From a virus, in the IMG/VR virus record IMGVR_UViG_3300045988_105477: a DNA stretch of 39,638 bases. One strand, given 5' to 3'. Positions 2,896 to 31,498 of the stretch are shown piece by piece. The notes beneath the pieces were generated by a model. It was not told the origin of the DNA and made no database searches. It saw only the letters and a program-made list of their open reading frames with translations. A program made the position numbers and the translations under genes. Positions within the stretch are counted from its first letter, which is position 1. Each line of letters opens with the position of its first letter.

Positions 2896-3234
2896 TTATT
2901 GCGATGCAAGAGCTTTTATTATCTCAAACACCCGCGCCCGGTTCTCCGGCGTCAGCTGATGTAAAAGCTCAATGATCCGCTTATCATCTTCCGCCAGCCC
3001 GTCCCCATTCGTGGGGGCGGGCTGTTTTGTTTCGTGGGGGCTATTTGTATACCCCATCAAATAGTCAATCGTGACATTGTACTTTTGGGCGACCGCAATC
3101 CAAAAGTCCGACTTTGGTTCTCTTGCCCCTGTCTCATACCCATTGTATGTGGTGTACCCGATTCCGAGGGATGCCGCAAAATCTTTTTGCGTCATTTTCA
3201 TGGATTTCCTCAGAATCTTTAGATTCCTATACAT
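2896..3234 (-). CDS. CI-like XRE-family repressor
   Basis: MYRNLKILRKSMKMTQKDFAASLGIGYTTYNGYETGAREPKSDFWIAVAQKYNVTIDYLMGYT is a classic HTH_3 layout. ATG at 3234 follows AGAGGGTGG. Divergent from the cro-like gene. Alternative starts at 3243 and 3201. Confidence 0.8.
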   Translation of the reverse strand: MYRNLKILRKSMKMTQKDFAASLGIGYTTYNGYETGAREPKSDFWIAVAQKYNVTIDYLMGYTNSPHETKQPAPTNGDGLAEDDKRIIELLHQLTPENRARVFEIIKALASQ

Positions 3235-3296: not shown

Positions 3297-3343
3297 TAAA
3301 AAAATCCGCATTCTGTGAATTTTTATCTTGACACAATCCGCAT
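3284..3343. promoter_or_regulatory. Three operator-like TCCGCAT sites in the switch region
   Basis: tccgcat at 3284-3290, 3305-3311 and 3337-3343. The third lies in the palindrome CCGCA-TAT-TGCGG (3338-3350), inside the rightward promoter spacer. Confidence 0.55.
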
Positions 3344-3356
3344 ATTGCGGTATTAT
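3328..3356 (+). promoter_or_regulatory. Rightward (early) promoter
   Basis: TTGACA (3328-3333), exactly 17 nt, TATTAT (3351-3356). RBS AAAGGAGG and the cro-like ATG at 3401 lie downstream. Confidence 0.75.
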
Positions 3357-3400: not shown

Positions 3401-3592
3401 ATGCGCGACAATATTGAAGCAGAACGCTACCGTCTGCGGATGACAAAAACAGCAATGTGTAGTGTGCTGGGGGTAACTCTTAAAACCTACAACGCTTATA
3501 TCGCCGGGGCATCAATCCCGTCCAGCAAATTAGAGATACTGCGGGAGTTGACTGGCCGTTCTGTGGATTACCTGCTGGGCTTGTCTGCATAG
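3401..3592 (+). CDS. Cro-like XRE-family HTH regulator
   Basis: 63 aa. RLRMTKTAMCSVLGVTLKTYNAYIAG...SVDYLLGL. Strong RBS. Divergent from the CI-like gene. Confidence 0.8.
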   Translation: MRDNIEAERYRLRMTKTAMCSVLGVTLKTYNAYIAGASIPSSKLEILRELTGRSVDYLLGLSA

Positions 3593-3601
3593 GCCCTAAT
3601 T

Positions 3602-3956
3602 TTGCCGGTCTGCTCCGTGCTAAAAAAGAAAACGCCCGGACGGTGCATCGTCCAAGCGCTTTCTGCGGAGATGTTTTCGCAGCGGTGAATCTCTCTCCGT
3701 TACGGTATGGTGGCCGGGTGGGAGAGAGGCGTTTGCACCCGCCTCAGACACCGCCAAGCAGACGTTTAGGCTCCGCGCCTATGCCCGTCTGCTTACCCCG
3801 CCTGGTCTGGCGTTGCGCGAAAATGGCGGCGCGTCATAAGGGAAACGCTCGTAAAGAGCTTGTCCAGTGTGACACACCTCCTCTCTTTCCCAGCAAGGGG
3901 AATGACCGAGAGTGCCGCGCACGGCAAGGCCATTTTAGCACGGAGCAGACCGGCAA
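3602..3956 (+). repeat. 24-bp perfect inverted repeats (3602-3625 / 3933-3956) bracketing a 307-bp non-coding, hairpin-rich segment
   Basis: ttgccggtctgctccgtgctaaaa versus its exact reverse complement ttttagcacggagcagaccggcaa. The interior has several 5-9 bp stems, e.g. AAGCAGACG (3757-3765) / CGTCTGCTT (3785-3793). Confidence 0.9.
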
Positions 3957-3974
3957 GCAAGAGAGGTGTTATTT

Positions 3975-4154
3975 ATGCAAAATTCTCAAAACGATCTCAG
4001 CGATACCGGAAAGGTGCTCCACGAGGACACCCAGAATGAACGTTATAAGCGGTACAAGCACCTGTGCTATCGCAATCTTCTTCTGAAATCGGCGCTCACG
4101 TTCCTCTTCGGCATCCTGTTTAGCGCGTTCCTTGGCGGCTTGATCCGCTGCTAA
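3975..4154 (+). CDS. Small tail-anchored membrane protein (59 aa)
   Basis: RBS GAGAGGTG, then ATG at 3975. C-terminal TM segment ALTFLFGILFSAFLGGLI. Hand-counted third-position GC is about 69%, against about 51% for the overlapping antisense ORF. Confidence 0.5.
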   Translation: MQNSQNDLSDTGKVLHEDTQNERYKRYKHLCYRNLLLKSALTFLFGILFSAFLGGLIRC

Positions 4155-4257
4155 CTTCTTTGCGTATTCTTCAAATTCCCTCTGCACCGCATATCCCCCC
4201 TTGCCCCCAACATACAACAATTCACACCAACTTGCAATCACGAAAAGGAGAATCAAC

Positions 4258-4855: not shown

Positions 4856-5121
4856 GTGGAATAGCACATCTACGCCACGAGCGGCAAAGGTTTAGCAATG
4901 CGGGGCTATAAGGCGCAAAGCAACGGAAATGCGGAGCTACGCGGCGCGTCGGCATGGCAGAGCGCAGCAACGAGACGCAACGCAACGGAAAAGATGTGCG
5001 ACGACGCGCAACGGAATAGCATTGCATCGAGGCGCTATGGAATGGAAGGGCCGCGAATCGTTCAGCAATGCGACGGCAAAGCATGGAACAGCACCGTTTT
5101 GCAAAGCAACGGAATGGCATA
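4856..5121. repeat. Iteron-like array of short direct repeats in a 350-bp intergenic region
   Basis: GCAACGGAA at 4920-4928, 4982-4990, 5008-5016 and 5106-5114. GCAAAGCAACGGAA at 4915-4928 and 5101-5114. AGCAATGCG at 4894-4902 and 5064-5072. GGAATAGCA occurs twice. Confidence 0.8.
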
Positions 5122-29650: not shown

Positions 29651-31498
29651 TTACTTGACATTTCCTGTGTATCGCAGCTGTACATCCGTCTGCAAAACCG
29701 TTGCCGTTGCGGATGAGGAATCGCTCTTGTAAATCAGCTTGTAGAATGTGGCTTTCTTGACCTTCATCTTCACCCGCCGTACCTGGGGTTTCCGGTTGGT
29801 GCCGAAGGACCAGTGGGCAAAATCCGCATGGGTAAAGGTGCTCAAGCCGGAAGACACGACCTTTTCCGGGTAATCGCTGCGCCGGTTGGTTTCTACCGTC
29901 ACATTCACCCGGGCATTGCTCTCCGGCTGAATGGCCACAAAAATCTGCGGGCTGTACTTCAACACCCAGTCCCGGTCAAAATCCATGGAGCCGGTGGCGG
30001 CGTATGCGTTGATGTTTTCTCCGTCATCATTGCGGTACTGCCGGGAAAAGTGCACCACACTGCCGTCCTCACGGAATCCGTAGGTTTCAAGGCCGATTTC
30101 CTGCATACCCCGGAAATTGATGTTGGTGTAGAGATACCATGCGTCCGCTCCGTAATTGAGAATCAGCGCCTTGTCCTGATAAAGCCACCAGAACTCCTGA
30201 TGATTTTTCCGGTTGAAAATCCGGGTTTCGGCCATATCAAAGCCCTGTAAAGTCACCTCTGCCCGGTTGCTGATGCGCTCTGCGTTCCGCTCATCGGAGG
30301 TGATATTGCCGCCGGTGGATACGGAGCGCCACCGGTAAACCGCTTGGTCATCCAGCGTCAAGGGGTTGTTTTCCAGCAAGTCCACCTGCCCCATGGCCTT
30401 GTTCCCAAACTGCCGGTTCACAGGAGTAATGTAAAAGGCCGCTGTGGTCACGTTGGAAGCGGTGGTCAGGGTGGAATAACTCATGCTCCATGCACTGTCC
30501 TGCTTGAATACCAGCAGCCGCGCATAGTGGCGGATCATGCCGGTGATGGGGGTGTTGGCATCCCCCACTTCCGCTTCATAGAGGTCAGGGAAGTAGTCCG
30601 CCGTAGGTTTGGCCGTTGAGGCGTCAATGCCGGAATAGATGGTCTTGTTGGTGCCGTCTCCGTAGAGGAATACACGGCTGTCCGTCTGCCCGTTGTAAAG
30701 TTCGGCAAACCGCATTCCGGTTACCTCACCCCGCGCTCCTTCCCCGTTGCGGTACACCAGTTCCAGCGTATTGACCCCTGCTGCCGGTGCGGCGGAGAGG
30801 GTGAAGGTTCTCGCTTGCAGATCGGAGGTGTAGGGCTGCTCCGCGTCCCCGATTTTCACGGAAATAATCTCGTCCACATGACTTTCCGGAATCTTAAAGG
30901 TCTTGGCCGTTCCGTCAGGGGAGTAAAGCACCTTCCGTTTTCCCGTCAGCCGGTTCACATTTTCCAGCAGATACCCGCCGCCCTCCGCCGTGGTGGCGTT
31001 CATCACCGTGGGGATATACCCCTCCACATCGGCAAAACTGTTCTCTGCCTTGCCGTCCCAACTCATATATTCGTGTCCGTTCAGCAGATAGACTTTGTTG
31101 CCGAAGCCGAAAAATGTGGTCTGTGCCTGTGTGCATTTGCCCACAACGGAAGCGGCAGCAGATGTCAGGTTGATGTCAAACACAAGCCCACCAAAAGCTG
31201 CCAGCAGCTTTTCTGCACCATTTACAACACCTTCCCAAGACCCGCAATACACCGGGCTTTCCGTTGGGGCGGTGTTCCCCTCCTCGGCGCACCATGCGTC
31301 CCACGTTGTTTTTAGGGTCAGCAGGGTTTTGGTGCCGGGGCGCAGCTGCAAGTGGTTCTCCCGTGTCACCCGGAAGTTTCGCTGCACGCTCATTTCGCCG
31401 TTTTTAATTTTCGTATCGCCGTCCGGGTTCTCATTCAGCCCCAAAAACTGGCGGATCTTCAAGATTTGAATGTCGTTGTTGACGGCAATCCGCGCCAT
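29651..31498 (-). CDS. 615-aa virion structural protein (tail/knob-like by position)
   Basis: Large ORF between TerL and portal. No motif recognised; the call rests on synteny only. Confidence 0.45.
   Translation of the reverse strand: MARIAVNNDIQILKIRQFLGLNENPDGDTKIKNGEMSVQRNFRVTRENHLQLRPGTKTLLTLKTTWDAWCAEEGNTAPTESPVYCGSWEGVVNGAEKLLAAFGGLVFDINLTSAAASVVGKCTQAQTTFFGFGNKVYLLNGHEYMSWDGKAENSFADVEGYIPTVMNATTAEGGGYLLENVNRLTGKRKVLYSPDGTAKTFKIPESHVDEIISVKIGDAEQPYTSDLQARTFTLSAAPAAGVNTLELVYRNGEGARGEVTGMRFAELYNGQTDSRVFLYGDGTNKTIYSGIDASTAKPTADYFPDLYEAEVGDANTPITGMIRHYARLLVFKQDSAWSMSYSTLTTASNVTTAAFYITPVNRQFGNKAMGQVDLLENNPLTLDDQAVYRWRSVSTGGNITSDERNAERISNRAEVTLQGFDMAETRIFNRKNHQEFWWLYQDKALILNYGADAWYLYTNINFRGMQEIGLETYGFREDGSVVHFSRQYRNDDGENINAYAATGSMDFDRDWVLKYSPQIFVAIQPESNARVNVTVETNRRSDYPEKVVSSGLSTFTHADFAHWSFGTNRKPQVRRVKMKVKKATFYKLIYKSDSSSATATVLQTDVQLRYTGNVK

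Follow-up and report, generated by a model that had tools for sequence, protein, structure and literature searches.

Phage morons are autonomous promoter-cargo-terminator units that occupy variable slots in the genomes of temperate phages. Substrates of RNase III include lambda sib and the duplexes of T7 early RNAs, and Correia-type MITEs can yield hairpins in transcripts that are cleavable by the same enzyme. The cwpV switch of C. difficile is a RecV-dependent invertible terminator in which imperfect repeats of 21 bp bound a segment of 195 bp; this segment holds no promoter, and its terminator is located at the repeat junction (PMC2784873).

The element described here is a repeat-bounded cassette downstream of a cro-like gene in a 39.6-kb viral sequence (IMG/VR record IMGVR_UViG_3300045988_105477), the whole of which is referred to below as the window. 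As in cwpV, inverted repeats of about 21-24 bp surround 195-307 bp of non-coding DNA within a transcribed leader, and an intrinsic terminator is found at the junction of repeat and interior in one orientation only, an internal promoter not being required. In contrast to cwpV, the repeats of the cassette are perfect and without dyad symmetry, 19 contigs display it in one orientation, and it is flanked by phage transcription units that converge on it, not followed by a single surface-protein gene. Its interior is also larger and far more structured than a terminator requires.

Like morons, the cassette is polymorphic at a fixed slot, would be transcribed against the flanking lytic genes, and has a predicted terminator together with a candidate promoter of its own; the alternative occupants of the slot are conversion-type genes. 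Here, however, the cargo encodes no protein and has a perfect inverted repeat at its borders. The cassette also recalls lambda sib/tI, where the terminator is placed inside a larger dyad and a long duplex, a potential RNase III site, arises only in read-through. Judged from its sequence, the cassette has a sib-type geometry, with the predicted terminator within the dyad and the left arm past the termination point, but its duplex would enclose 307 nt and not a short loop, and there is no sequence similarity. Leftward transcription from downstream of cro, antisense through cro towards the repressor gene, would resemble lambda PRE/oop, although no CII-like activator is known for the cassette, which is accessory and not part of the core circuit. 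With the Correia elements of Neisseria it shares small size, lack of coding capacity, terminal inverted repeats and possible promoter or terminator activity. It differs from them in having no target duplication, a single copy, and a single slot and orientation, and no copies were found in the host genomes searched.

Anatomy of the cassette and its convergent neighbours

The left arm, TTGCCGGTCTGCTCCGTGCTAAAA (3602-3625), and its exact reverse complement, the right arm (3933-3956), are 100% complementary (24/24 nt) and enclose 307 nt (3626-3932), the whole repeat-bounded stretch amounting to 355 bases. The inverted repeat had been predicted in just this form, and the local stems listed with it were all recovered, with positions agreeing within 1 nt. 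Across its 24 nt the helix of the arms has zero G.U pairs and zero bulges, and the arms as read from the sequence are without internal dyad symmetry. With up to three mismatches allowed, the arm occurs at just two sites in the window and in 0/100 dinucleotide-preserving shuffles. Arms, interior and six nucleotides on the right (GCAAGA) make up a conserved, exchangeable module at 3601-3962 that starts 9 nt past the stop of the cro-like gene. No strand is assigned to this module, to either arm, or to a nested hairpin at 3756-3794 that is a hot spot of variation (6/16 variable columns); the hairpin-rich, non-coding interior is entered on the minus strand, with the fold z-scores given below as its evidence.

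Absence of a credible ORF, also part of the original prediction, is borne out by gene callers, which left the gap empty in 10/10 related contigs. Among 5.8 billion sequences the longest frame (106 aa) has a sole protein relative, a spurious ORF that belongs to a further copy of the element, and when the ORFs of 80 related loci (7,350 in all) were compared by blastx, the element's own copies matched and nothing else. A decayed protein gene was rejected on these grounds, as were two leftward small ORFs of 46 and 47 aa, which have no RBS and are not called as genes in any locus. Nor did any Rfam 15 covariance model match at its gathering score, in line with the earlier impression that this is not a known RNA family. 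A search of Rfam at E<=10 gave nothing usable; its best sub-threshold match, a terminator-like one, was to the terminator half of His_leader (25.8 bits vs. a threshold of 49). The cassette is non-coding, unusual and outside the known RNA families.

Other identities were considered and rejected. A retron or reverse-transcriptase-linked RNA (a1/a2-like repeat) was dismissed since no reverse transcriptase is found in 20 window proteins or among the Pfam-annotated genes of related loci, and a CRISPR-repeat or tracrRNA mimic (the arm starts with TTTTAGC) since no array with the arm as its repeat is present in the genome collection. Antisense targets in trans elsewhere in the phage gave chance-level matches only (<=17 nt). 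Against an immunity operator, the arms have no dyad symmetry and bear no likeness to the PR/PRM operators, and five different cro types accompany the cassette.

The left neighbour of the cassette is the cro-like HTH gene (63 aa; 3401-3592, plus strand), identified by PHROG transcription-regulator matches. Upstream of it is a PR-like promoter, TTGACA-17-TATTAT (3328-3356, plus strand; 11/12 consensus matches), and a cI-like repressor gene (2896-3234) is divergent from it. On the right, the unit had been thought to end at the RBS of the next early gene, a 59-aa plus-strand ORF (3975-4154). This placement fails: the ORF is a shadow of a leftward gene, orfM (72 aa; 3969-4187, minus strand). In a set of 21 different alleles, codon positions 1/2/3 of the 59-aa ORF have 17/4/9 variable sites, and synonymous changes predominate solely in the opposite frame. 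The leftward 72-aa translation is kept across alleles, even over an in-frame 4-codon indel. By codon-position and synonymous/non-synonymous tests, a routinely mis-called rightward ORF is thus judged to hide a leftward gene. The product of orfM has a charged N-terminus and a single hydrophobic segment, and its RBS (GGGGGG) is 7 nt upstream of a GTG start. The leftward orfM operon has a weak candidate promoter, TTGCAA-17-TATGTT (4209-4237, minus strand; 8/12 consensus matches), whose hexamers and spacing are retained in a diverged allele, L014. Because the plus-strand ORF is a shadow, the element is located between convergent genes, cro running rightward and orfM leftward. It had further been claimed that every early transcript must cross the unit. 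For transcripts from PR this is probably the case, as no other rightward promoter was located before 10.4 kb in the window.

A swappable module in a variable cargo slot

Across 18 full-length contigs, in which five unrelated sequences flank it on the left and several on the right, the cassette shows 98-99% identity and no indels; its orientation is identical in these and in one partial contig. In 11 variants, covering all contexts, the full 362 nt are without a single indel. Cassette copies differ by ~1%, whereas adjacent homologous modules differ by 5-28%. Homology among copies begins at 3600-3602 and stops at 3962 in L003 and L012; in relatives without the cassette it picks up exactly at 3963. 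Only the orfM ORF is deleted in L003, and orfM with the -10 of its promoter in L012, yet both retain the six right-hand nucleotides of the cassette.

The cassette is absent from 48 related IMG/VR phage loci. In relatives the slot is filled by various minus-strand protein genes, the RBS of which adjoins position 3963 and the stop codon of which adjoins the cro module. Several of them start with signal-peptide-like sequences and are typical conversion-type genes. The cassette is a swappable accessory module of some human-gut temperate phages, and this phage family has a hypervariable cargo slot with sharp boundaries. In being present in some close relatives and replaced by other cargo in others, at one fixed slot, the cassette behaves as expected of a moron.

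The arm was found on 3 contigs of the JGI metagenomes, all of the same phage family as the window, and element-positive samples include those behind ERZ18707888 (~185x) and ERZ27229847 together with SRR25571554, SRR25448288, SRR14024247, ERR14001289 and SRR10662788. Comparison of the element by blastn with 50,697 phage records and 72,556 plasmids gave no match. The exact arm pattern had 0 matches in IMG/VR, where two interior 21-28-mers gave 0 matches and one chance match (L079). In 185,579 species genomes (596 Gb) a 20-mer of the arm gave one chance match, within a 1058-aa ORF (L011).

Predicted transcription signals, folding and sequence variation

An intrinsic terminator is present on the minus strand at 3617-3664, with a 16-bp stem (3664->3627) followed by a U-run that reaches into the left arm. 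Its stem is the longest among all terminator-like sites in the window. The calculated stability of the hairpin is -25.7 kcal/mol on the minus strand vs. -16.4 on the plus strand, where it has mismatches and is without a U-run; three base pairs of the hairpin that are G.U in minus-strand RNA turn into A.C mismatches in plus-strand RNA. The segment therefore contains an orientation-dependent signal, a terminator at the left junction with its U-run on one strand only, and in silico the case for a strand-specific terminator is convincing.

A consensus match in the right arm suggests a candidate leftward promoter (3932-3960, minus strand), composed of a -35 TTGCTT (3960->3955), a 17-nt spacer and an extended -10 TGcTAAAAT (3940->3932). 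On both strands of the window (79 kb) this site ties for 6th-10th best by a ranking score that was our own and was defined after the site had been seen; a stricter built-in promoter scan missed it. Its hexamers are invariant across the 11 variants, and the 6 nt kept beyond the right arm cover its -35. Terminator and promoter-like site, the clearest functional signals of the cassette, are both on the strand opposite to a leader RNA.

The interior has a fold z of -5.0 (minus strand) and -4.0 (plus strand). When the terminator hairpin is left out, the two strands are near equal (z = -3.55 and -3.57), and the fold z-scores therefore do not pick the minus strand. Genome-wide, z has a mean of -0.58 (sd 1.2, minimum -3.49), and the interior is more structured than 61/61 genome windows of equal size. 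The 11 variants contain 16 variable columns; 113/125 pairs are invariant, 5 are broken in some variants and 0 are compensatory. Sequence variation is too low to give covariation any statistical power. Uncompensated changes in the arms occur at 3602 and 3609 (left arm) in L027 and as G3952A (right arm) in L026; the closing-helix pairs broken at 3609 and 3952 would read A.C in a plus-strand RNA but G.U in a minus-strand RNA. A further change in L027, C3657T, weakens the terminator to -20.3 kcal/mol. In the hairpin at 3756-3794, 5/6 changes are transitions with a mixed wobble fit, some to the plus and some to the minus strand. Calling the working strand from wobble-compatible substitutions was abandoned, since plus- and minus-compatible counts are about equal and uninformative.

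Possible functions of the cassette

The explanation we prefer, although tentatively, is that the cassette is a leftward non-coding RNA and terminator module that may halt transcription of the accessory operon before it goes antisense into cro. The cassette would fill the variable cargo slot of a leftward operon composed of the candidate promoter (4237-4209), orfM and the slot. This operon is probably expressed in the prophage, and would be set head-on inside the rightward PR-cro early operon; the working strand would most likely be the minus strand. We infer that transcription comes from the orfM promoter and/or the promoter-like site of the cassette's right arm, and that the strong terminator adjoining the left arm stops it 30 nt before the end of cro. 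The product would be a structured RNA read leftward, which could form a long 3' UTR or, with a start near 3925 and an end near 3621, an independent transcript of ~300 nt; over its full length it would be antisense to the rightward early leader. As a one-way barrier, the cassette would keep leftward transcription from antisense passage through cro towards the cI gene, which nothing would stop in relatives without it, and rightward transcription from PR would meet the hairpin in its weak, U-less orientation and read through.

A promoter-RNA-terminator model does not explain the 24-bp repeat, which such a unit does not require; a transcript from ~3925 to ~3621 holds neither arm. Our best guess is that the arms pair only in transcripts that contain both, namely the PR transcript or leftward read-through, where they might form a perfect 24-bp duplex and, by analogy with lambda sib, a potential RNase III substrate. 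If the leftward-module explanation is true, the cassette would be a non-coding "moron", an RNA-and-terminator cargo that replaces a lysogenic-conversion protein in some gut temperate phages. It would insulate the cro/repressor switch from head-on accessory transcription, and its RNA antisense to the early leader would constitute an accessory RNA layer in the lysis-lysogeny control of uncultured human-gut phages.

In L027 the terminator is found directly upstream of a leftward protein gene. This layout fits poorly, as the terminator would silence that gene, unless it is a recombination by-product or C3657T leaves the terminator leaky.

The structured-leader reading of the original prediction would place the function in the PR transcript, in which the arms would form a 24-bp helix closing a 307-nt folded domain that serves as an RNase III processing site, stability element or attenuator. 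We regard this as improbable. Both arms are present only in this transcript or in leftward read-through, the perfect 24-bp duplex is of sufficient length for RNase III, and the full element has z = -8.3 on the plus strand, with the closing helix in both minimum-free-energy and centroid structures; there is also an 11-bp plus-strand helix (3712-3722 with 3797-3807) with three G.U pairs that are mismatches on the minus strand. Yet compensatory changes are zero, three closing-helix pairs are broken uncompensated in L026 and L027, and the helix, being free of G.U pairs and bulges, looks like DNA-level identity and not like an evolved RNA stem. Moreover, the strongest hairpin is perfect on the minus strand only, Rfam gave no match, and the element, because it is absent from most relatives, stands outside the family's core early regulation. 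What survives of the reading is an interior with more structure than expected by chance, but to the same degree on either strand. A somewhat lower probability is given to the element having no current function and being a recent recombination product, e.g. of the promoter and terminator of an old leftward cargo unit with an inverted duplication. The very low divergence (~1%) against 5-28% nearby fits recent spread as well as constraint, no function has come to light, and the arrangements in L027 and in L013, which has a solo left arm copy plus AAGAAAAC, resemble by-products of illegitimate recombination. Against this, a perfect 24-nt inverted duplication is very unlikely by chance (0/100 shuffles), the 362 nt stay indel-free in 11 variants in compact phage genomes, and the interior is unusually structured and without a protein-level trace of any cargo gene. 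Insertion of a MITE, i.e. a non-autonomous transposon with 24-bp terminal inverted repeats, downstream of cro had also been suggested, and is hardly credible. Terminal inverted repeats, TG...CA-like ends, a size of ~355 bp, the lack of an ORF and a sharp left edge at the outer repeat end would all suit one, but there is no target-site duplication (2-9 nt) at six left junctions, and the right flank is a constant GCAAGA. All copies share slot and orientation, with one copy in this genome, the 20-mer of the arm has just its one chance match, inside a coding gene, in 185,579 species, and searches of the IMG/VR, phage and plasmid collections revealed no copies.

The possibility of an invertible segment, likewise raised at the outset, is one that we consider unlikely. 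In a cwpV-type inverton, a site-specific recombinase would flip the 307 bp that the 24-bp repeats enclose. With the element oriented as in the contigs, leftward transcription would be blocked and PR early transcription would pass. After a flip, the PR transcript would end immediately downstream of cro, at the same hairpin with a U-run supplied by the second arm, and leftward transcription would go antisense through cro towards cI, resulting in a heritable switch between lytic-competent and locked-lysogenic states. This is the only model that makes direct use of a perfect DNA-level repeat, and the anatomy fits well. Repeat length and spacing are typical of invertons, with a short non-coding segment flanked by inverted repeats at the meeting point of convergent transcription units. 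A strong terminator is located exactly at the junction of repeat and interior with its U-run continuing into the repeat; given two identical arms, inversion would restore it in full on the opposite strand. This layout is very similar to that of the C. difficile cwpV switch (PMC2784873). The single orientation, however, holds in all 19 contigs (18 full-length, one partial), from independent samples and with five left contexts, although assemblies report the majority orientation only and may favour replicating phage, which makes this orientation evidence weak. The element is traversed without a break by several Logan contigs, whose k of 31 exceeds the length of the 24-nt repeat, and ORFs of the inverted form are absent from the protein collection. 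The flipped form would be marked by the sequence CCCTAATTTTGCCGGTCTGCTCCGTGCTAAAATGGCCTTGCC, and its junction would read CCCTAATTTTGCCGGTCTGCTCCGTGCTAAAA joined to TGGCCTTGCC, where the observed junction is ...GCTAAAA joined to AAGAAAACGC. The arms are also without the dyad symmetry usual for recombinase core sites, Pfam scans of 20 other window proteins revealed no invertase, and the sole recombinase seen is an integrase, of three different types among the element-bearing phages. The fuller proposition, that this is a phage-borne invertible one-way terminator placed where PR-cro and leftward accessory operons collide and acts as a portable lytic-competence switch, is slightly less probable again. 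If true, phage lytic competence would be governed by a DNA switch both heritable and reversible, of which no report was found in the literature.

L020 and L024 have, at the position of the cassette, another repeat-bounded non-coding segment that is unrelated to it, a further point in favour of an inverton. The arms of this second segment comprise 16 perfect and 7 further nucleotides enclosing ~154 nt (L020:2579-2764), upstream of a secreted-type cargo gene. Comparison of the arms of the window element with those of L020 revealed no convincing common core. By its position and architecture, this second segment suggests that the cassette may belong to a class.

Genetic context of the element

The window is a temperate phage from human-gut metagenomes, assembled as a circle. 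Positions 1-119 are identical to 39520-39638, a k-mer overlap such as MEGAHIT leaves on circular contigs, so the window corresponds to a complete genome, circular and 39,519 bp long; the ENA contig ERZ27229847:k119_209353 holds the same genome, relative to which the window is circularly permuted. The integrase (349-1431) and a cI-like HTH repressor (2896-3234) are encoded on the minus strand. A cro-like HTH gene of 63 aa (cro63, 3401-3592, plus strand) is divergent from the repressor, with a near-consensus promoter (PR) upstream of it at 3328-3356. The minus strand at 15281-35403 carries the late and structural genes, among them an ORF of 1677 aa; the early operon runs on the other strand, so that the genome's two arms converge at about 15.2 kb. 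The product of 29651-31498, a protein of 615 aa, shows ~26% identity to virion structural proteins of the Bacillus megaterium phages Page, Pony and Pascal, and a tRNA gene (52.8 bits; 36585-36653, minus strand) lies in the interval that separates the late genes from the genome's integrase end.

The 59-aa plus-strand ORF at 3975-4154, usually annotated and taken in the original prediction as the next early gene, is instead the shadow of a leftward gene. Its codon boundaries coincide with those of an opposite-strand ORF of 72 aa (4187 to 3969). Among 21 distinct alleles, variable sites at plus-frame codon positions 1, 2 and 3 number 17, 4 and 9, the distribution expected if the minus frame codes. 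Synonymous changes prevail in the minus frame only (in one related locus, L075, the ratio of synonymous to non-synonymous changes is 9:1 in the minus and 1:9 in the plus frame), and the 72-aa product is conserved, its substitutions being conservative and a four-codon indel leaving the frame intact. The real gene is orfM (3969-4187, minus strand), which has a good RBS and is predicted to encode a small membrane-type protein whose N-terminal half is charged and which has one hydrophobic segment. A weak promoter-like site ahead of it, TTGCAA-17-TATGTT (4237 to 4209, minus strand), is retained in a diverged allele.

With its right neighbour running leftward, the element lies between convergent genes, cro and orfM. 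The proposal that early transcripts cross it survives in part: as no other convincing rightward promoter was found before ~10.4 kb, PR transcripts probably have to pass through the element, and through orfM in antisense, to reach the replication and recombination genes, but no early gene lies directly to its right. The cro stop codon falls within a small plus-strand hairpin, GGGCTTGTCTGCATAGGCCC (3577-3603), with TAATTTT next in the sequence. This hairpin belongs to the cro63 module only. Its U-run extends over the left arm's first bases, and it could act as a weak terminator at the end of cro.

An exchangeable cassette in a variable slot

The inverted repeat and the local stems were found as described: TTGCCGGTCTGCTCCGTGCTAAAA at 3602-3625 and its exact reverse complement at 3933-3956 form a 24-nt perfect repeat enclosing 307 nt. 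No further arm copies (up to 3 mismatches) occur elsewhere in the window, or in shuffled sequence. The absence of a credible ORF is borne out by gene callers, which place no gene in the segment in 10 of 10 related contigs. The long Arg-rich frame has no relatives in 5.8 billion proteins, bar a single spurious ORF that stems from a further copy of the element, and translated comparison of the segment with all ORFs of 80 related loci matched only the element's own copies. Likewise, an Rfam search gave no usable match, in line with the view that this is not a known RNA family.

Exact-protein lookups and pattern scans yielded 18 full-length copies of the cassette (3601-3962) and 1 partial copy, on contigs from independent samples. 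The copies are 98-99% identical and indel-free, with 16 of 362 columns variable; divergence of the adjacent homologous modules is 5-28%. Five unrelated left flanks were seen, namely cro63, cro types of 68, 66 and 70 aa, and, in the variant copy L027, the start of a leftward 288-aa gene. The right flanks comprise two diverged orfM alleles, an orfM deletion (locus L003), a larger deletion (L012) and the flank of L016. Homology begins at the outer edge of the left arm in every case and reaches exactly 6 nt (GCAAGA) past the right arm, and in element-free relatives it resumes at 3963. The element is absent from 48 related IMG/VR phages and many ENA relatives, and no copy outside this phage family was found in any collection searched.

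The position is a hypervariable cargo slot with sharp boundaries. In element-free relatives it holds assorted minus-strand protein genes, several with signal-peptide-like starts, and the element is thus one alternative cargo of the slot. The RBS of these genes abuts 3963 and the stop codon abuts the cro module (in those checked, in the 68-aa cro context), which indicates that they are cistrons downstream of orfM in a leftward operon. In element-free relatives nothing halts this operon before it enters cro in antisense, towards cI, the same geometry as that of lambda PRE. At least 4 unrelated leftward protein genes of 104-290 aa were observed in the slot (~3597-3962; equivalents in loci L015-L078).

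Signals within the cassette and their interpretation

The clearest signal of the cassette is a predicted leftward intrinsic terminator on the minus strand, with a 16-bp stem (3664 to 3627) followed by UUUUCUUUUUU, the final bases of which are the inner A-run of the left arm. Its stem is the longest among the terminator-like sites of the genome. The hairpin has a folding energy of -25.7 kcal/mol on the minus strand and -16.4 kcal/mol on the plus strand, where there are three A.C mismatches and no U-run. The right arm and the 6 extra nt contain a minus-strand promoter-like site, TTGCTT-17-TGcTAAAAT (3960 to 3932), which, by a simple score defined post hoc after the site was seen, ties with the PRM-like promoter and ranks in the top ten of 79 kb. 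Its hexamers do not vary across variants. A leftward transcript using these signals would extend from ~3925 to ~3621, approximately the 307-nt interior.

The structure of this interior exceeds chance (minus-strand z = -5.0, plus-strand z = -4.0; -3.55 and -3.57, respectively, once the terminator hairpin is removed), as judged from a genome background of 61 same-size windows (mean z -0.58, sd 1.2, minimum -3.49). Being equal on both strands, the structure does not identify the working strand, and would be as expected from many short perfect DNA palindromes.

The favoured reading, quite possible if short of probable, is that the cassette is a leftward non-coding module, consisting of a structured 3' UTR or a separate ~300-nt RNA together with a strong terminator. 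Such a module would replace protein cargo within the orfM operon, shield cro, along with the immunity switch, from accessory transcription coming head-on, and yield an RNA whose whole length is antisense to the early leader. The slot, the orientation, the terminator, the promoter-like site and the extra 6 nt are all explained by this reading, and so is L012, which has lost orfM and its promoter's -10 and keeps the cassette's own -35. The 24-nt repeat itself falls outside this account. Speculatively, PR transcripts or leftward read-through, in which alone both arms would be present, might pair them into a duplex of 24 bp free of mismatches, which would be a plausible target for RNase III. Lambda sib, with a terminator inside a larger dyad, is analogous to the cassette terminator inside its repeat.

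The arms might alternatively pair as the closing helix of a leader RNA. This is possible but unsupported: none of the predicted pairs shows compensatory change, 113 of 125 are invariant, and the variant copies L026 and L027 break three closing-helix pairs without compensation; moreover, 24 nt lacking wobble pairs or bulges resembles identity at the DNA level. Insertion of a MITE, also proposed originally, was rejected: the element occupies a single slot in a single orientation and has no other copies in the collections searched, and the target-site duplication already reported as not visible is lacking at every junction.

An invertible terminator is the most interesting live alternative, albeit a weakened one. 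The anatomy closely parallels that of the C. difficile cwpV switch, in which imperfect 21-bp repeats flank a 195-bp segment that is promoter-free inside and has a terminator at the repeat junction (PMC2784873). Since the arms of the cassette are identical, inversion would rebuild the terminator and U-run intact on the plus strand, where it would halt PR transcripts just past cro. However, every contig shows one orientation, several Logan contigs, assembled with a k of 31 that exceeds the length of the repeat, traverse the segment unbroken, no inverted-form ORF is on record, the arms have no internal dyad symmetry, and no invertase was found among the 20 window proteins scanned. The contig evidence only weakens this reading, as assemblies show the majority state alone. 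The first putative invertons on gut viral contigs were reported recently, none of them described at such a position (PMC13501310).

Neither a MITE nor a member of any known RNA family, the element is real, non-random, non-coding, portable and narrowly distributed. The best description is of a moron-type accessory unit of phages whose putative cargo is an RNA and a terminator.

Other repeats and non-coding segments

A solo left arm with AAGAAAAC, followed by a different short leftward terminator hairpin, occurs at L013:115-153 (contig ERZ1026894.12440), flanked on one side by a conserved gene-free 330-nt segment and on the other by an antirepressor-type gene. The contig stops 114 nt past the solo arm and has no second one. 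A conserved ~330-nt segment with no called gene is found at L017:2320-2651 and in ~12 other loci (e.g. L045, L051, L053, L063, L075), in many relatives directly 3' of the 66-aa cro type; its first 65 nt recur downstream of antirepressor genes, and this segment, too, may be a non-coding cargo. At L020:2579-2764 and, identically, at L024:2505-2690 there is a second inverted repeat, unrelated to that of the cassette (16 nt perfect, ~23 with one mismatch). It encloses ~154 nt of AT-rich non-coding DNA (fold z = -7.7) in the same place, with the orfM stop codon on one side and, on the other, the RBS of a secreted-type cargo gene that runs leftward, and may be another element of the cassette's kind or an invertible promoter.

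Within the window, the gene-free gap at 4884-5114, between genes of 197 and 66 aa, contains an iteron-like array of six degenerate direct repeats spaced 26-62 nt apart. Four of the 5 exact copies of GCAACGGAA in the genome, all on the plus strand, fall within this array, a candidate origin of replication or protein-binding array. Two adjacent leftward genes contain the arms of a perfect 17-nt inverted repeat, TTTTTCTGAAAAAGCAC (2129-2145 and 2659-2675), with 513 nt between them. Each arm is near-palindromic and encodes the peptide FSEK, so the repeat may be coincidental; it is also found in the related loci L001, L002 and L005.
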